Positions 1-9,497 of a stretch of DNA of 9,497 nucleotides are shown here, piece by piece (positions within the stretch are counted from its first letter, which is position 1; every line of letters starts with the position of its first letter). Source of the DNA: a virus (lineage: Duplodnaviria; Heunggongvirae; Uroviricota; Caudoviricetes); IMG/VR virus record IMGVR_UViG_2671180636_000009; one strand, 5' to 3'. Made by a program: the position numbers and the translations under genes. Under the pieces are notes generated by a model, which saw nothing but the letters and a program-made list of their open reading frames with translations, searched no databases and had not been told where the DNA came from.

Positions 1-31
1 TACACTAAATCAGTAAGTTGGCAGCATCACC
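1..31 (-). mobile_element. IS1 insertion sequence, terminal inverted-repeat end only (element body lies beyond the window start)
   Basis: Bases 1-31 (TACACTAAATCAGTAAGTTGGCAGCATCACC) match, from memory, the reverse complement of the IS1 terminus GGTGATGCTGCCAACTTACTGATTTAGTGTA that lies just upstream of insA. Composition changes abruptly at base 32. Recalled, not searched; orientation inferred from that recollection. Confidence 0.7.
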
Positions 32-350
32 AGCCTTCTTGAGGCTACCACCTGTTTTCAGGTGTCATTCAGACGTGATTTGCCCCAGATTGGGAAAGCA
101 CGCTTTTTTCTCAGCTATCGTCCTCTTATTTTGCCGTTACATTTCTTTTTGCATTCTAATGATTAATTTACAATAATAATATCGGTAATTATTGAGTAAT
201 AATAAATTAATTATTGCAAATGTAATTTAATTCCATCTTCGCGTTATATTCCAATCTTTAATCTCCGCATGGAACAAGTTGCATGCGTGACTATATTAAG
301 ACGACTTATAACCACCAAAACATTTGCTTTGCAAGCAAAAACAGTGACCA

Positions 351-379
351 TTGACTCTAAGAAAATTCCGATCTATTGT
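351..379 (+). promoter_or_regulatory. Candidate sigma70-like promoter (-35 TTGACT at 351-356, 17-bp spacer, -10 TATTGT at 374-379) upstream of the small ORF
   Basis: Hexamers read directly from the sequence. The region is AT-rich, so chance promoter-like matches are common; no experimental support. Confidence 0.2.
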
Positions 380-413
380 TAGGGTCATCAAAGTTACTTA
401 ACAGTATTCCGAA

Positions 414-515
414 ATGAAAATACAAAGCAAGCTAATTGTCTTATTAAACATTATTATTGCATTTATATTATTTGAGCTTTTAGCTCAAAAATTTGGTTTG
501 AGTACATTATTTTAA
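414..515 (+). CDS. Candidate small hydrophobic membrane peptide, 33 aa (MKIQSKLIVLLNIIIAFILFELLAQKFGLSTLF), possible moron or type I toxin-like gene
   Basis: ATG at 414, TAA at 513-515. About 16 consecutive hydrophobic residues are consistent with one transmembrane helix. A promoter-like element lies upstream and an intrinsic terminator about 150 bp downstream. No clear Shine-Dalgarno sequence precedes the ATG, and I do not recognise the peptide. Confidence 0.25.
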   Translation: MKIQSKLIVLLNIIIAFILFELLAQKFGLSTLF

Positions 516-663
516 AGCAAGATAAACAATATCGGGCACTCTAGTTTTTATAATTAACAATTAAACGTCCATAAAATGTTATTTACTTTTCTTCGCTATT
601 GTCATATCTTAATATAGTGGCTTACGCCACTCTACTTTCATCACATTTTGTACGTTTATGTAC

Positions 664-694
664 TCGCCATGAAGCTCTTTCATGGCGATTTTTT
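664..694 (+). terminator. Rho-independent terminator-like hairpin (10-bp stem 664-673 / 679-688, loop GCTCT) followed by a six-T run at 689-694
   Basis: Perfect inverted repeat TCGCCATGAA / TTCATGGCGA followed by TTTTTT, read directly. The T-run is on the plus strand, so it would stop transcripts coming from the small-ORF side before they run antisense into tfa. Confidence 0.45.
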
Positions 695-780
695 ATTCTT
701 AATCCAAGAACATACTCCCTACCTATAGCAAAATCACTTTTTTAACAAAAGAATAACGTATTTAGGTAATCATTACGAAT

Positions 781-1169
781 TTACCCTATAGGTGCTACTG
801 GCCATTCAATATCCGGTGCAGTTGATGTATCAACACGGTTCAGCAACACCCGATACTTTTTCCAAGCTTCCAGCAACAAGGTTTCTTTCTCCGTTGCGAT
901 CTCCAGATCCACAGCATCCTGAAGCGGCGCTATATGCTCACTGGCTACCTGCATCAGGCTGTTTTTTGTTTCTTCCGCCTCCCGGATCCGGAACAGTTTT
1001 TCTGCTTCCGTATCCTTCACCCAGGCTGTGCCGTTCCACTTCTGAAACTCCCCTTCCGGGGATAACCAGGTGACATTTTCCGGTAATGAGCCGAGTTCAG
1101 AAATAAATAACGCGTCGCCGGAAGCCACGTCATAAACCGTTTTACCCCGATGATCTTCAACGAGATGCC
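781..1169 (-). CDS. tfa: Tail fibre assembly protein Tfa (lambda Tfa / TfaR-TfaQ family); C-terminal ~128 aa visible, N-terminus hidden in N-run 1170-1675
   Basis: The minus-strand translation ends ...[72 protein letters not shown], with the stop codon at 781-783. This closely resembles the Tfa C-terminus of lambdoid phages (recalled). If the gene is about 190 aa, the start lies near 1350-1370 inside the N-run. Confidence 0.85.
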
Positions 1170-1675
1170 NNNNNNNNNNNNNNNNNNNNNNNNNNNNNNN
1201 NNNNNNNNNNNNNNNNNNNNNNNNNNNNNNNNNNNNNNNNNNNNNNNNNNNNNNNNNNNNNNNNNNNNNNNNNNNNNNNNNNNNNNNNNNNNNNNNNNNN
1301 NNNNNNNNNNNNNNNNNNNNNNNNNNNNNNNNNNNNNNNNNNNNNNNNNNNNNNNNNNNNNNNNNNNNNNNNNNNNNNNNNNNNNNNNNNNNNNNNNNNN
1401 NNNNNNNNNNNNNNNNNNNNNNNNNNNNNNNNNNNNNNNNNNNNNNNNNNNNNNNNNNNNNNNNNNNNNNNNNNNNNNNNNNNNNNNNNNNNNNNNNNNN
1501 NNNNNNNNNNNNNNNNNNNNNNNNNNNNNNNNNNNNNNNNNNNNNNNNNNNNNNNNNNNNNNNNNNNNNNNNNNNNNNNNNNNNNNNNNNNNNNNNNNNN
1601 NNNNNNNNNNNNNNNNNNNNNNNNNNNNNNNNNNNNNNNNNNNNNNNNNNNNNNNNNNNNNNNNNNNNNNNNNNN

Positions 1676-2294: not shown

Positions 2295-4544
2295 CCAGCC
2301 GATGAGTAACTCACCTTCGCCAACGGCTGTCATCCCTTTNNNNNNNNNNNNNNNNNNNNNNNNNNNNNNNNNNNNNNNNNNNNNNNNNNNNNNNNNNNNN
2401 NNNNNNNNNNNNNNNNNNNNNNNNNNNNNNNNNNNNNNNNNNNNNNNNNNNNNNNNNNNNNNNNNNNNNNNNNNNNNNNNNNNNNNNNNNNNNNNNNNNN
2501 NNNNNNNNNNNNNNNNNNNNNNNNNNNNNNNNNNGCCAGGTGAATAATCTGTTCCGTGATTAATATAGGTAAACTGGGCGTTGGTTGTTCCGCCACCGCT
2601 GGATGTGGTCGGAGTGGTAATGCGGATCGTCATCGCTGACTTTATCCCCATTACTTCAATGACAGCTCCGGCGAGATGAATATTACCGCAGCCAGTATCA
2701 GTAATGATTTTATTATTGCCATAAGACCAGGAACCCTTGCACATCCAGTATGGATGGTTAAATGCTCCCTGAGAATCCAGCCACTCGATAAACTGTGCAG
2801 TCGTCCAGTTTCCTGTTGTTGTGCTTACTGACCCACCGAAGGCACGGCAGGCACCAATATTTTTCGTAAAGGTGTCTTTGCCAGGGATATCCGCACCGTT
2901 CTGATCTTTCTGCAGACGTTTCTCAGCATTGTCATTGGCTGCTTTTACTGCCTTTGGCGTTGCCGCCAGCGTTTCAGACGTGCTGTTGGTCGCGCTGCTT
3001 AGCTGGATTATCCCTTTCTGTGCTGTCGTTGCATCCTGTGCGGTGTATTTCCCGTTAGCCAGGTCATACGCGGCCTTAACGGCTTTTGGTGTTGCCGCCA
3101 GTGACTCGGAAGTGCTGTTAGTCGCACTACTGAGCTGTACTATCCCCTTTTTCGTCGTGCTCGCATCCTCAAGCGCCACGGCGGATGCAATATCCTCTGC
3201 CCGTTTTGCCGCTGTCTCAGCGCGCGTTGCTGCAGATTCCGCCGTACTTTTGCTCTGAGCTGCTGCCGTCGCACTACCAGCAGCCTCTGTCGCCTTCGTG
3301 GATGCCGTCGTGGCGCTGCCCTTCGCTGCTGACGCCTGTCTGGTCGCCTCATCTTTTGAAGCAGACGCCGATGATGCCGATGACGCCGCCGAACTGGCGG
3401 ACGATGCGGCAGCCGTTTTTGAGGATTCTGCACGGGTTTCCGACGCTTTCGCGTTCGTTTCGGATGTCTTCGCTGCGGAAGCTGACCTCGCTGCTGCCGT
3501 GGCCTGCTCAGTGGCTTCGCCAGCCTTCGTTGTGGCTGTTGAAGCGGATGATGCGGCGCTTTCTGCCGATTTTCCGGCGGCGGTGGCACTGGCTGAGGCC
3601 TGCCCGGCACTTGTTGACGCGGCGCTGGCAGACGACGCAGCCGCTGTTTTTGAGCCTGCCGCAGCTGAGGCACTCTGTCCCGCTGCCGTTTCAGAAGACC
3701 TGGCGTTCGTCTCGGACGTTTTGGCCGCCTTCGCAGAATTTGCAGCCGCCGTCGCCGAGGAAGCTGCGCTACTGGCGCTTGATGATGCGTTCGTTTCTGA
3801 TGATTTTGCCGCCTCTTTTGAAGCCGACGCATCCCGGGCTGAGGTGGCAGCTTCTGACGCTTTCGTGGTCGCGGTGGATGCAGAAGTGGCTGCTGATTGT
3901 TGTGACGCTGCCGCATTCGTTTCTAACGTTTTCGCCGCACCGGCACTGGTAGCCGCCGCGCTTTTTGAGGACTCTGCAGCGGCAGCACTTTTTGAGGCTT
4001 CAGTGGCCTTTGTTGATGCCGTTCCTGCGCTGGAAGACGCTGACTGAGCCGACGAAGCGGCCTGTCCGGCTGACGTGCTGGCTGCACGTGCTGAATCTGC
4101 AGCATCAGTCGCATGGGTTGCCGCCTCACGGGCTGATGTGCTGGCATCGCTGGCTGATTTCTTCGCGGCTGCCGTGTTCTGTGCCACCGCGGACGCGTTA
4201 CGCGCCACCTCTTCCACCATCAGCTCAAAACGGCGCAGTGCCTCCGGACGGGCATCATCCTCCGTCATGGCACCGAGAAAATCATTCAGCGTACCGGGTC
4301 GGGAATCTTCATACACGGTGATGGTCCCGGCATGTGACGGCGGGAATCCTTCCACCAACAGAATAACGCTGTACTGACCGTACTCAACGTCCATGCTGTA
4401 ACGCCCGGCTTCATCCGGATTTTCTGAGGCCAGCGTGTTCACCACCACCGTGGTGCTGTTACGTTTTGCTTTCAGCTGGATTGTGCAGTTCTGTACCGGT
4501 TTTCCTGTGCCGTCTTTCAGTACACCTGAAATCTTTACTGCCAT
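2295..4544 (-). CDS. stf: Side tail fibre protein Stf, N-terminal and central part (lambda Stf / StfR family); 3' end unresolved because of N-runs 2182-2294 and 2340-2534
   Basis: ATG at 4542-4544 gives MAVKISGVLKDGTGKPVQNCTIQLKA..., the conserved lambda-type Stf N-terminus (an in-frame GTG lies at 4548-4550). An Ala/Ser/Thr-rich central region and two tandem 44-aa KGIxQLSSATNSTSExLAATPKAVK repeats follow. The short visible piece 2295-2339 is open only in this same frame. Confidence 0.88.
2929..3150 (-). repeat. Two tandem in-frame coding repeats (~132 bp / 44 aa) inside stf encoding the phage tail-fibre repeat motif
   Basis: Units at about 2929-3013 and 3061-3145 are near-identical in DNA and encode GIVQLSSATNSTSESLAATPKAVKAA and GIIQLSSATNSTSETLAATPKAVKAA. 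Confidence 0.6.
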
Positions 4545-5208: not shown

Positions 5209-5405
5209 AATTACCTCTCGCTTTTCTGCAATAAAAAAGNNNNNNNNNNNNNNNNNNNNNNNNNNNNNNNNNNNNNNNNNNNNNNNNNNNNNNNNNNNNN
5301 NNNNNNNNNNNNNNNNNNNNNNNNNNNNNNNNNNNNNNNNNNNNNNNNNNNNNNNNNNNNNNNNNNNNNNNNNNNNNNNNNNNNNNNNNNNNNNNNNNNN
5401 NNNNN

Positions 5406-8400
5406 CCTGCCCCCTGATTGCCTTTCTGGAAAATCTTAAACTCCAGAGTGACGCTACCACCACCACTAGGCATATCAATAACANNNNNNNNNNNNNNNNN
5501 NNNNNNNNNNNNNNNNNNNNNNNNNNNNNNNNNNNNNNNNNNNNNNNNNNNNNNNNNNNNNNNNNNNNNNNNNNNNNNNNNNNNNNNNNNNNNNNNNNNN
5601 NNNNNNNNNNNNNNNNNNNNNNNNNNNNNNNNNNNNNNNNNNNNNNNNNNNNNNNNNNNNNNNNNNNNNNNNNNNNNNNNNNNNNNNNNNNNNNNNNNNN
5701 NNNNNNNNNNNNNNNNNNNNNNNNNNNNNNNNNNNTCCCGTGGGAAAGGTTTGCCCACTGTTTTAACGAGATCGCCTTCAATCTGGTTCGCGGACAATTT
5801 TCCCAGAACNNNNNNNNNNNNNNNNNNNNNNNNNNNNNNNNNNNNNNNNNNNNNNNNNNNNNNNNNNNNNNNNNNNNNNNNNNNNNNNNNNNNNNNNNNN
5901 NNNNNNNNNNNNNNNNNNNNNNNNNNNNNNNNNNNNNNNNNNNNNNNNNNNNNNNNNNNNNNNNNNNNNNNNNNNNNNNNNNNNNNNNNNNNNNNNNNNN
6001 NNNNNNNNNNNNNNNNNNNNNNNNNNNNNNNNNNNNNNNNNNNNNNNNNNNNNNNNNNNATAATGGGCGGAATAATAATCTGGCGGTCAAAGTTATGATC
6101 ATCGCTTATGGTGACTGTAACCGTCCCGTTTGGTGTTTCCGTGTTACCCCACGTACCAGCCTGTTTCGGAAATGATTTGGATACAGCTTTAACGNNNNNN
6201 NNNNNNNNNNNNNNNNNNNNNNNNNNNNNNNNNNNNNNNNNNNNNNNNNNNNNNNNNNNNNNNNNNNNNNNNNNNNNNNNNNNNNNNNNNNNNNNNNNNN
6301 NNNNNNNNNNNNNNNNNNNNCTGTTTCGGAAATGATTTGGATACAGCTTTAACGAAGTCACCTCTGACCTGAGTCGCCTCCAGCATGCCCTTAATCGTAC
6401 AGTTTTCATTTACCGTGACATTGTTGAGCGTCCCGGCGTTCGCATTCACACTGCCACTGATATCCGCATTTTTAGCGGTCAGCTTTCCGTCCGGAGTCAG
6501 GGAAAATGCCGATGGATTTCCACCGCTGGTAATGGTGGGGGCCGTCAGGCGTTTCAGGAACACGTCGTTCATGAATATCTGATCGCCCTGACCAACAAAC
6601 ATCGGTTTTGTGTTGCCATTCGCAGGATTAACCATCGCAATCCTGTCCGCCGCCAGCAGCACCTGACTCTGCATGCCGTCAGGGGTGTTCTCAATACCGG
6701 CACCAATACCCGCGATATAAAGGCGTCCGTCCTGCATCTGCTGCAGCTTCACAGCCCACATGCTGTTCAGGTTATTATTTGTATCAACCTGAACCTTCTG
6801 TATCTGCTGAATTGCCGCACTCTGGTCTTCCAGTTTCTTATTGACGGTCTGCGTGATTTCATTGCTGACATCCGTAATGGACGTCCTGATTTCAGCCAGG
6901 TCAGGCGCAAGCTGACCGTTATCAATCTGCGTCCACAGCTCCTGAGCCAGATGGGTTTTCCCTATCTCGCCTTTGAAAAAATCCAGATAACCGGATGCAT
7001 CATCACTCGGCTGACCAACAGCCTCCACGAATGCCGATTTGCCAACGGTGTTCACACTGCGGATATAAAAGTAATAATCATGGCCCGGTTTGATATTGAT
7101 ACTGGCGGCTATCCAGTACAGCGCCGTGCCAAGATAGCGTGCTGTGGTTTCAACCTGCCTGATATCCGCAATCCGCTTTTCCGAGAACCAGAACTCAAAC
7201 TGTACCGTCGGATCATAAACCGCAAGATGCGGCGTGGCGGTTATCTGAAAATAGCCCGGCGTCAGCTCAATCCGCGACAGCGCTGCCGGTGCGGCAATCC
7301 GGAACGATACCGACGCCGGATCGCCCTGCTGCCCCCACGCATTTACTGCCCGGACTGTCAGCCTGTAGTTCCCCAGCGCCAGTTGTGTGAAGCGGTAAGT
7401 GGTTTCCGTCGTCCGNNNNNNNNNNNNNNNNNNNNNNNNCCAGCCGCTCACTGCCGTCATCCGCTGTTACGGTCAGACGGAGCAGGAAGCTCACGCCCTT
7501 CACCACCTTCGGCGTGTCCCAGCGCGCCAGCACCTGATATTCCCCGCTGTCTGCGGTGACTTCGGCGGTCAGATGCTGCACCGCTGGCGGCGTGACACCA
7601 TTCACCGTGCCGCTCTGGTCGCCGTCAAAGTGCGCCCCGTTATCCACGATGGCTTCTTTTTCCGGCACATGCTGCACGGCGGTGATGGCATACGTGCCGT
7701 CGTCGTTCTCACGGATACTCACGCAGCGGAACAGACGCTGGCGCAGCGTCGGCAGCTTCAGCCCCCACACGCTGTATTCTGCAACGCCGTCAGGAACACG
7801 GCTCACTTTTACCTTCACGCCGTCGGTGACGGACTGGACCTCCACGCTGACCGGATTNNNNNNNNNNNNNNNNNNNNNNNNNNNNNNNNNNNNNNNNNNN
7901 NNNNNNNNNNNNNNNNNNNNNNNNNNNNNNNNNNNNNNNNNNNNNNNNNNNNNNNNNNNNNNNNNNNNNNNNNNNNNNNNNNNNNNNNNNNNNNNNNNNN
8001 NNNNNNNNNNNNNNNNNNNNNNNNNNNNNNNNNNNNNNNNNNNNNNNNNNNNNNNNCCGCCAGTACGCGACCACCGGTGCTGATACCGGNNNNNNNNNNN
8101 NNNNNNNNNNNNNNNNNNNNNNNNNNNNNNNNNNNNNNNNNNNNNNNNNNNNNNNNNNNNNNNNNNNNNNNNNNNNNNNNNNNNNNNNNNNNNNNNNNNN
8201 NNNNNNNNNNNNNNNNNNNNNNNNNNNNNNNNNNNNNNNNNNNNNNNNNNNNNNNNNNNNNNNNNNNNNNNNNNNNNNNNNNNNNNNNNNNNNNNNNNNN
8301 NNNNNNNNNNNNNNNNNNNNNNNNNNNNNNNNNNNNNNNNNNNNNNNNNNNNNNNNNNNNNNNNNNNNNNNNNNNNNNNNNNNNNNNNNNNNNNNNNNNN

Positions 8401-9497
8401 NNNNNNNNNNNNNNNNNNNNNNNNNNNNNNNNNNNNNNNNNNNNNNNNNNNNNNNNNNNNNNNNNNNNNNNNNNNNNNNNNNNNNNNNNNNNNNNNNNNN
8501 NNNNNNNNNNNNNNNNNNNNNNNNNNNNNNNNNNNNNNNNNNNNNNNNNNNNNNNNNNNNNNNNNNNNNNNNNNNNNNNNNNNNNNNNNNNNNNNNNNNN
8601 NNNNNNNNNNNNNNNNNNNNNNNNNNNNNNNNNNNNNNNNNNNNNNNNNNNNNNNNNNNGTTCCATACCGGCATACAGCGCATCGCCGAGCAGAAATCAC
8701 TGAGCACATCCCACGCCTTGCGCTGTGTGGTCAGCCAGGCATTACAGGTGATGCGCGGCTCCGTGCTGCCAAAGCCGTCCGGCACCGACTGGTCACAGTA
8801 CTGGCCGATGACATACAGCGCATCGCCGAGCAGAAATCACTGAGAACATCCCACGCCTTACGCTGTGTGGTCAGGTAAGAGTTACAGGTGATGCGCGGCT
8901 CCGTGCCGCCAAATCCGTCCGTCACTGACTGGTCGCAGTACTGGCCGATGACATACAGCGCCCATTTGTCCACATCTGCCGCACCAAGACGTTTCCCCAT
9001 GCCGTAGCGCGGATGAGTGAGCATGTCCCACAGACACCAGGCCATGTTGTTGCTGTATGCTGGCTTAAGCGTTCCGTCCCAGATACCGCTGTATTGCCGC
9101 GTCTGCGGATTATAGTTCGACGGCACCTGCAGAATGCGCCCGCGAAGATGATAATTGCGACTCACCTGCTGGTTACCGAACTGCTCTGAATCCACCTGCA
9201 CGCCGACCAGCGCCGTGTTCGGGTAGCACTGTTTCNNNNNNNNNNNNNNNNNNNNNNNNNNNNNNNNNNNNNNNNNNNNNNNNNNNNNNNNNNNNNNNNN
9301 NNNNNNNNNNNNNNNNNNNNNNNNNNNNNNNNNNNNNNNNNNNNNNNNNNNNNNNNNNNNNNNNNNNNNNNNNNNCACCTGCAGAATGCGCCCGCGAAGA
9401 TGATAATTACGGCTCACCTGCTGGCTGCCGAACTGCTCCGAATCCACCTGTACGCCGACCAGTGCCGTGTTCGGGTAGCACTGTTTCACATCGATGA
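5406..9497 (-). CDS. J: Tail tip / host specificity protein J (lambda gpJ family), partial: 5' end beyond the window, 3' end inside N-run 5240-5405; reading frame not continuous as given (possible pseudogene or assembly artefact)
   Basis: Visible minus-strand segments read [20 protein letters not shown]..., [15 protein letters not shown]...[69 protein letters not shown]..., [30 protein letters not shown]...[21 protein letters not shown]... and [11 protein letters not shown].... All are collinear with recalled lambda J from about residue 210 to the C-terminal region. The segments fall in different frames across the N-runs and across a 140-bp tandem duplication. Confidence 0.85.
6161..6354. repeat. 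Exact 34-bp direct repeat (6161-6194 and 6321-6354) flanking the 126-nt N-run inside J
   Basis: CTGTTTCGGAAATGATTTGGATACAGCTTTAACG occurs identically on both sides of N-run 6195-6320. It encodes [11 protein letters not shown] of J; the 160-bp period is not a multiple of 3. Confidence 0.8.
8673..8952. repeat. Tandem direct duplication, 2 x 140 bp, with about 12 mismatches (~91% identity), inside J
   Basis: 8673-8812 and 8813-8952 align base for base with 12 differences by hand count, with no N between them. Each copy encodes the J segment ...DGFG(S/G)TEPRITCN(AW/SY)[21 protein letters not shown] in its own frame; 140 is not a multiple of 3, so the J frame is broken at the junction. Confidence 0.8.
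9124..9487. repeat. Direct repeat of about 112 bp (9124-9235 and 9376-9487, 7 mismatches) flanking the 140-nt N-run; period 252 bp, in frame
   Basis: Both copies encode the J segment [20 protein letters not shown](N/S)[16 protein letters not shown]. Lambda J has this segment once, as I recall it. Confidence 0.75.

Follow-up and report, generated by a model that had tools for sequence, protein, structure and literature searches.

A moron for a putative YncL-like small membrane protein probably lies in the AT-rich island beside tfa of a lambda-like Escherichia coli prophage

We describe here the AT-rich island (positions 32-780) that lies between the tail fibre assembly gene tfa and an IS1 element in the IMG/VR virus record IMGVR_UViG_2671180636_000009 (Caudoviricetes), of which a stretch of 9,497 nucleotides (nt), hereafter the window, was analysed. 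The window covers the tail end of a lambda-like prophage. The greater part of the island, about 235-700, is probably a moron, that is, a self-contained mobile transcription unit that is oriented opposite to the tail genes and would encode a protein of 33 residues resembling the stress response membrane protein YncL. An earlier note on this DNA, made from the letters alone, had suggested moron-like accessory cargo downstream of tfa, and had reasoned that without a long open reading frame (ORF) any function would have to reside in a small protein, a small RNA (sRNA) or regulatory DNA. Both suggestions are supported by a 33-codon YncL-like ORF (ORF33) that is under purifying selection, by the candidate signals flanking it and by the transfer of the whole block between prophage sites.

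The resemblance of ORF33 to YncL was seen at the level of profiles, of pairwise alignment and of hydropathy. The NCBIfam profile NF000537 ("stress response membrane protein YncL") matched the peptide with E=1.3e-5 (25.0 bits, aligned over 1-28 of 30), and BLASTP against YncL of E. coli K-12 gave an ungapped alignment from Met1 with 39% identity, in which 11/28 residues are identical and 18/28 positive (E=2e-7). The residues common to both proteins are Ser5, Val9-Leu10, Asn12, Ala16, Leu19-Phe20, Leu22 and a basic-Phe-Gly motif at 26-28; among these, Asn12 and the basic-Phe-Gly motif are invariant in 4/4 ORF33 alleles, as compared with one YncL sequence and not with a family alignment. A protein of this kind would be expected to have about 30 residues and one central hydrophobic helix. 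ORF33 has 33 residues and YncL 31, and both have one hydrophobic helix at 7-25, where the maximal 19-residue Kyte-Doolittle mean is 2.54 for ORF33 and 2.15 for YncL.

Selection on the reading frame is evident from the comparison of three lineages, between which the ratio of nonsynonymous to synonymous substitution rates (dN/dS) was 0.11, 0.04 and 0.07. When random mutation sets of equal size were drawn, only 0.07% gave as few amino acid changes and no stop codon (permutation P=0.0007). The divergent lineage keeps all 33 codons although a 5-nt insertion or deletion (indel) falls immediately past the stop codon. Furthermore, ORF33 is open in 79/79 loci from isolate genomes, IMG/VR and metagenomes, with four protein alleles among them, a count to be taken with the caution that the pattern used to find these loci demands the conserved residues up to codon 28, so that alleles disrupted there would escape. 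Judged from its sequence, ORF33 is a real gene for a small membrane protein of the YncL family, and a paralogue rather than YncL itself: prophages at three other sites carry it behind tfa, whereas a YncL equivalog would be expected between patD and ortT.

Searches for wider homologues returned little beyond ORF33 itself. HMMER, run against 1.8 billion representatives, recovered only the ORF33 peptide and a frameshifted allele of it, and a search with that allele, 43 amino acids (aa) long, gave near-identical matches only. The local Pfam, PHROGs and PADLOC searches yielded nothing for ORF33, and in the 84 fetched loci neither nhmmer nor tblastn turned up a further paralogue of the peptide or the RNA element described below. 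In the literature library searched, no paper containing these sequences was found by full-text search, nor any on such a cassette by keyword. ORF33 is an unannotated new member of the YncL family that is restricted to E. coli prophages; the arrangement itself is already known, and nothing about it is categorically new.

Candidate signals of a transcription unit surround this gene. Upstream lies a sigma-70-type promoter-like site whose -35 hexamer is invariant in 6/6 aligned lineages, and downstream an untranslated stretch of 180 nt extends from the ORF33 stop codon to the end of the unit. The last part of this 3' untranslated region (3' UTR) is formed by a hairpin at 616-631 (AGUGGC-UUAC-GCCACU), an AU-rich linker at 632-663, a terminator stem at 664-688 and a U-run at 689-694. 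The fold of 614-697 has a minimum free energy of -27.1 kcal/mol (z=-6.5), and 0/200 shuffled sequences were as stable. The terminator stem comprises 10-11 base pairs (bp; 11 pairs with 5 G-C in the scan) followed by TTTTTTATT; the segment 660-700 alone folds at -15.2 kcal/mol and the hairpin at -8.9 kcal/mol. As a moron should, the unit is thus predicted to possess its own terminator. Given that the U-run is present on the plus strand only, this terminator serves a transcript convergent with tfa and not the tail operon. A possible internal promoter (TTTACT at 583-588, TATCTT at 605-610) was read from the sequence in the variable part of the 3' UTR, where it stays below the threshold of the scan.

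This 3' element is also the best conserved part of the island, with 92-93% identity over 614-700 as against 60-68% in the flanks. Relative to the lineage that is 79% identical overall, the promoter and ORF33 show 79-81% and the 3' element 93%, whereas the intervening segments fall to 53-60%. The 3' element and ORF33 occur together in all loci but two, one being a deletion variant and the other a truncated contig. In the deletion variant (L005 3922-4001, from an O169:H41 strain), a tfa remnant is joined to position 614, so that ORF33 is lost and 614-780 is kept. The 3' element is probably the stabilising and terminating end of a short mRNA; possibly it is also a 3'-UTR-derived small RNA, which would be a plausible second role.

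A moron would further be expected to differ in composition from the flanking phage genes, to be present in some close phages and absent from others, and to move as a block. The island has 31.5% GC and its surroundings 55.4%, its presence is polymorphic, and the boundaries of the moving block coincide with those of the unit. The segment 203/235-780 accompanies tfa at three prophage sites, namely the lambda attachment site, ydfJ (Qin) and sitABCD; the match begins at 203 in the Qin-site type and at 235 in the sit-site type, going by boundaries at query 172 and 204. The copies at the Qin and sit sites are about 94-96% identical, and a further lineage is 79% identical. Directly past the terminator, identity drops to 65-68% in the variants with another tfa (L008, L009, L032 and L041). 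At least 80% of 235-700 is held by 820/5426 complete E. coli genomes (~15%), and among the matches listed in E. coli genomes no feature is annotated in this block in any. The scans of viral and metagenomic sequences found the same three lineages only, and neither the exact RNA core nor a degenerate ORF33 pattern was matched in the species-representative genomes of any species. Only 4/50,697 phage records hold the island. Three sequenced phages, mEp332 (L002), PhiR70_1 and ev099, carry it without IS1 at 98.5-99.2% identity.

The earlier note had advised a search for what lies here in relatives lacking IS1; these three IS1-free phages carry the same island, followed by spacer and an AraC-family regulator. 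The note had also allowed that the region might turn out to be ordinary intergenic sequence of a known prophage or the untranslated tail of a known gene. It does align to phage sequence that is unannotated and intergenic, yet it is neither featureless nor the tail of tfa. Truncated C-terminal remnants of older tfa genes were noticed to the left of the block in Qin-site and sit-site prophages (L004 3144-3253 and 3896-3994; L008 3863-3962), and such remnants border its left side in Qin-site and divergent prophages. These stacked remnants suggest that successive phages recombined within tfa, piling up downstream cargo.

Several observations weigh against this interpretation. The score of ORF33 against the YncL profile (25 bits) is under the curated NCBIfam cut-off of 35, which makes the peptide a homologue or paralogue and not a YncL equivalog. 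The precomputed match of an identical peptide to Pfam PF28073 (YncL) is flagged weak, and part of the similarity could reflect composition, as expected for a hydrophobic peptide of 33 residues. Two frameshifted alleles of 43 aa (P0003 and P0004) are present in Logan assemblies, with the shift after codon 26. Diversity is shallow, with three lineages and four protein alleles, so that the selection test rests on ~20 substitutions, and recombination mosaicism complicates the conservation profiles. Unlike K-12 yncL, ORF33 has no Shine-Dalgarno sequence upstream of its ATG. The -10 hexamer of the promoter-like site is weaker (TATCGT) in the most divergent copy, and 4 promoter-like sites were counted where 3.3 are expected from shuffled sequence, the site being a match to the consensus only, in AT-rich DNA. 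Compensatory changes in the 3' element were seen at 0/20 pairs, with 96.7% of cells paired and variation too slight to be informative. Finally, the function suggested for ORF33 is extrapolated from over-expression phenotypes of a paralogue with 39% identity. As a side observation on the two frameshifted alleles, which are rare, an A-run, CAAAAATTT, at the shift point may point to a 1-nt slip; these alleles could represent sequencing errors or occasional pseudogenisation.

We propose that the sigma-70-type promoter at 351-379 would start a transcript of about 310 nt encoding the 33-residue protein (414-515), a prophage-borne paralogue of YncL, and that this transcript would stop at the intrinsic terminator at 664-697, which would prevent antisense transcription from running into tfa. 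The last ~85 nt, consisting of hairpin, AU-rich linker, terminator and U-tail, would probably stabilise the mRNA and may accumulate as a 3'-UTR-derived sRNA. By analogy with YncL, the ORF33 protein would insert into the inner membrane as a single transmembrane helix, where it might alter how the lysogen's membrane is energised, its stress state or how susceptible the lysogen is to other phages. Given the position of the gene, superinfection exclusion is a reasonable alternative outcome. YncL itself is a small inner-membrane protein induced by heat and by minimal medium; its production partly depolarises the inner membrane, leads to condensation of the nucleoid and sets off the phage-shock response (PMC12542507 and work cited therein). 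Its cleavage in vivo is RseP-dependent (PMC10470546). In Salmonella, yncL lies within a sigma-S-dependent transcript that was first listed as the sRNA STnc1110 (PMC5437024).

Alternatively, the main product might be an independent Hfq-type sRNA of about 80 nt (~617-697), made from a promoter of its own or processed out of the ORF33 mRNA, that base-pairs with host or phage mRNAs. We consider this less likely, although the sRNA and small-protein readings could both hold. An Hfq-dependent sRNA would be expected to present an AU-rich single strand before a Rho-independent terminator with a U-tail, and this is what the fold of 614-697 contains: its layout of 5' hairpin, 32-nt AU-rich single strand, GC-rich terminator and U-tail is typical (z=-6.5). 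The element is the most conserved segment of the island (92-93% as against 60-68%), the deletion variant retains exactly 614-780, and the top, non-significant Rfam matches are enterobacterial Hfq sRNAs (MicC, E=1.1; Esr41, E=5.4). Moreover, the Salmonella yncL transcript has itself been catalogued as an sRNA (PMC5437024). However, the Rfam thresholds are far from reached (22.8 versus 90 bits for MicC, RF00121; 15.6 versus 102 bits for Esr41, RF02676), none of the 20 pairs shows compensatory substitutions, the putative internal -10 hexamer does not keep its position in the divergent copy, and the element and ORF33 occur together in every examined locus except two. RNAduplex with six nearby candidates and the ompC leader gave nothing beyond shuffles, while the MicC control was reached by 0/500; pairing of the AU-rich linker with the ORF33 start, host yncL, the AraC leader, the 3' end of tfa and the deleted spacer on either strand was in no case stronger than with shuffled sequence. 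The conservation of the element could also reflect a role as terminator or stabiliser, or recent recombination. Lambda side tail fibres bind OmpC, and a mimic of MicC acting on this receptor was considered and rejected: pairing with the ompC leader was predicted at -18.7 kcal/mol, a value reached by 7.8% of shuffles, as compared with -26.5 kcal/mol and 0/500 for MicC. A module with both functions, in which the peptide would act on the inner membrane to guard the lysogen, for example by blocking entry of superinfecting DNA or tuning the proton-motive force, and the 3' end would act as an Hfq-binding sRNA on host genes, seems to us unlikely; if true, it would give the hitherto function-less YncL family a phage-related role.

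The remaining alternatives are weaker still. TisB, ShoB, Zor and Ibs are short hydrophobic type I toxins with a charged N-terminus. ORF33 is likewise short and hydrophobic with a charged N-terminus; it has no Shine-Dalgarno sequence and a long structured 3' UTR, and over-produced YncL reduces membrane potential and viability (PMC12542507). The locus could accordingly be imagined as type I toxin-antitoxin-like, with ORF33 a depolarising toxin curbed by an antisense or nearby sRNA for prophage retention or abortive infection. This is improbable: the pattern scan revealed no convincing antisense gene, since the promoter-like sites on the minus strand (605-576 and 226-199) are consensus matches at chance level and no terminator was picked up on that strand. 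The sole minus-strand hairpin candidate, at ~322-345, was read by eye and lies in a segment of 53% conservation; in addition, YncL is not counted among the type I toxins, and there is no PADLOC match. That the island is non-coding, being an H-NS-bound spacer, regulatory DNA for the AraC gene or recombination debris in which ORF33 arose by chance, would suit its 29-32% GC, its location upstream of a YdeO/GadX-like regulator on the tfa strand, the absence of a gene call here by any pipeline among the records listed, and the resemblance of its left third (32-234) to a mosaic spacer. We consider this very unlikely in view of the purifying selection on ORF33, the YncL match from two independent profile libraries and the preservation of the frame beside an indel. 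The same block also occurs without an adjoining AraC gene at the Qin and sit sites, and in IS1-free relatives a fossil attachment (att) fragment separates the island from that gene. Most improbable of all is that the late-operon transcript of tfa has its 3' untranslated tail and terminator in the island. On the minus strand the island does follow tfa directly, and it is co-inherited with tfa, but the one strong terminator carries its U-run on the plus strand, and read in the minus-strand direction the stem leads into GUACAUAAAC instead of a U-run. Furthermore, the sequence beside the tfa stop (701-780) is swapped when tfa changes while 614-700 stays, and such a tail would leave the selected plus-strand ORF unexplained.

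The preferred reading, a moron for a YncL-like protein, can be set beside systems already described. K-12 yncL (b4598, 31 aa) sits between patD and ortT; ORF33 is found in prophages after tfa. Both genes are short stand-alone transcription units, predicted as such in the case of ORF33. The two differ in that yncL has a Shine-Dalgarno sequence and a hairpin close to its stop codon, whereas ORF33 lacks the former and is followed by a 180-nt 3' UTR with an sRNA-like end, and in that the ORF33 block is held by only ~15% of complete E. coli genomes and by no species-representative genome. Lambdoid morons, such as HK97 gp15 and lambda lom and bor, are autonomous promoter-gene-terminator units beside tail genes. 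By analogy, the cassette shares with them a composition unlike that of its neighbours, presence/absence polymorphism and a small envelope product expected to be made from the prophage; in contrast, ORF33 is unrelated to them in sequence and much smaller (33 aa), and its cassette is convergent with the late operon. CpxQ, MicL and SgrS are 3'-UTR-derived or dual-function small RNAs of enterobacteria. The terminal ~85 nt of the cassette has the same layout of hairpin, linker, terminator and U-tail and is better conserved than the remainder of the UTR, but belongs to no Rfam family at threshold and shows neither covariation nor MicC-type pairing with ompC.

YncL has been described through over-expression phenotypes only, and a diverged paralogue that phages carry as a mobile cassette next to their host-recognition genes suggests a function that phages can exploit, such as membrane energisation, stress state or phage exclusion. 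A natural gain-of-function test system is offered by mEp332 or PhiR70_1 lysogens that either have or lack ORF33. ORF33 also illustrates how prophage accessory ORFs of fewer than 50 codons escape annotation; in PhiR70_1 a nearby non-conserved ORF is annotated instead. That ORF (269-382, 37 aa, hypothetical in PhiR70_1) was rejected as a candidate: most relatives lack its start codon, ATG being replaced by ACG in the Qin-site and sit-site lineages, and no family matched it. Another, at 599-745 (TTG start, 48 aa), overlaps the terminator and likewise has no family match.

The features of the window are collected in Table 1. As to composition, GC content is 31.5% for 32-780 and 29.4% for 117-780, compared with 55.4% for the rest of the window outside the masked runs. 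The sharp drop after tfa and the figure of roughly 30% GC, which the earlier note had judged by eye, were therefore both accurate, and the windowed profile that it had called for (200 nt) runs at 25-34% across 101-800 before climbing to ~50% inside tfa. Equally correct was its statement that neither strand has an ORF of 60 aa or more: none lies within 32-780, the longest being 52 aa (18-176) and 48 aa (599-745). The window contains 11 masked runs of N, 2541 bases in total, which hit parts of tfa, stf, lom and J; because of this masking, ORF lists and the composition profile inside these runs are artefacts.

Table 1. Features in and around the AT-rich island and masked runs of the window
Feature	Position	Strand	Basis or remark
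IS1 outer end (insA-proximal inverted repeat)	1..31	-	transposase genes run leftwards, away from the island
Mosaic spacer, right part of a 215-bp block	32..116	.	block also at the end of Rac-site prophages; no conserved ORF
Very AT-rich spacer	117..234	.	117-202 in the attB-lambda lineage only
Conserved block upstream of the promoter-like site	235..350	+	lineage alignment
Sigma-70-type promoter-like site, TTGACT-17 nt-TATTGT	351..379	+	consensus scan; predicted start ~386
Putative gene for a YncL-like single-pass small membrane protein (ORF33), MKIQSKLIVLLNIIIAFILFELLAQKFGLSTLF	414..515, stop included	+	profiles, BLASTP, selection
Variable part of 3' UTR	516..613	+	59-60% (516-580) and 79% (581-613) identity in the divergent lineage
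Conserved sRNA-like 3' element	614..697	+	fold, terminator scan, lineage alignment
Spacer, terminator to tfa stop	698..780	.	replaced in lineages with a different tfa
tfa, tail fibre assembly gene	781..1362	-	convergent with the cassette; stop codon 781-783
N runs	1170-1675, 2182-2294, 2340-2534, 5240-5405, 5484-5735, 5810-6059		
N runs, continued	6195-6320, 7416-7439, 7858-8056, 8090-8659, 9236-9375		

In the genomes closest to the window the gene order is J, lom, stf, tfa, the AT-rich island, IS1 and an AraC-family regulator on the tfa strand, followed by insertion sequence (IS) remnants and then the lambda attachment site on its ybhB-bioA side. Bases 1-31 have the same sequence as the end of an IS1A copy annotated in L001, where they read on into its transposase, which bears out the assignment of an IS1 end at base 31 in the earlier note. 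In L001, which shares the junction of the window, IS1 stands in place of mEp332 1951-2500. Going by this alignment, the junction is an insertion plus an adjacent 550-bp deletion in the genomes sharing it, and the left side of the 32-234 spacer would have been trimmed by these events. The exact junction (1-90) occurs in 79/5426 complete E. coli genomes. In mEp332, PhiR70_1 and ev099 the distance from tfa to the regulator is ~1.5 kb. The suspicion that IS1 had truncated a larger cargo locus was thus right in that 550 bp were lost, but what was lost is spacer without a conserved ORF, and the AraC regulator is intact. A 55-aa ORF across the insertion point, annotated in ev099, was considered and rejected: it has no family match and is not open in the L006 copy, which indicates that IS1 did not cut a conserved gene.

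In the deleted spacer there is also a 60-nt fragment (L002 2332-2391) that copies a tRNA-Ser gene in its 3' part, running from anticodon loop to CCA, and which we take to match serU, tRNA-Ser(CGA); ARAGORN found no complete tRNA in the deleted spacer. This fragment is probably the fossil attachment site of another element. It is located between the island and the AraC-family gene in mEp332, a mosaic breakpoint (L002:2373) falls inside it, and it was lost in the IS1-associated deletion. The regulator gene itself is AT-rich and encodes a YdeO/GadX-like protein of 247 aa (E=9e-43; 147 bits versus the YdeO equivalog cut-off of 348). It is intact beyond IS1, which lies 208 bp upstream with insAB in the same orientation (L001 4314-5057 and 5264-6031), and IS1 read-through or loss of silencing could alter its expression. 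AppY of DLP12 is a prophage-borne AraC-family regulator as well (PMC10057817). Like regulators of the AppY type, the YdeO/GadX-like gene is AT-rich prophage cargo of the AraC family, downstream of tfa at the prophage end; it differs in being outside the window, as a module of its own with the fossil tRNA-Ser att fragment between it and the island.

The left part of the island, 32-234, is a mosaic spacer. Its 215-bp block (L002:2373-2585 versus L006:2872-3086) matches at 95%, and the part at 32-116 recurs (L006 3001-3086) where a Rac-site prophage ends on the uspF side, beside three genes of DUF1076, the NleG-type effector family. A 55-aa ORF annotated there as "capsid protein" looks like a mis-annotation. 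Across 117-234 the other lineages show segment identities of 38-79%, and in the block that follows, divergent lineages retain 82-91% over 235-320, with 53% over 321-350 in the most divergent one. In L004, an annotated hypothetical ORF of 65 aa (3563-3760) sits between the two tfa remnants. The tfa gene of the window is colinear with the annotated tfa of L001 (6781-7362), with 98.6% identity over 1-1169. Within its coding sequence the Rfam model RF02111 ("IS009") gave a full-length match at 821-1019 on the minus strand (218 bits, E=6e-55), and this model appears to represent conserved tfa coding sequence and not an independent RNA.

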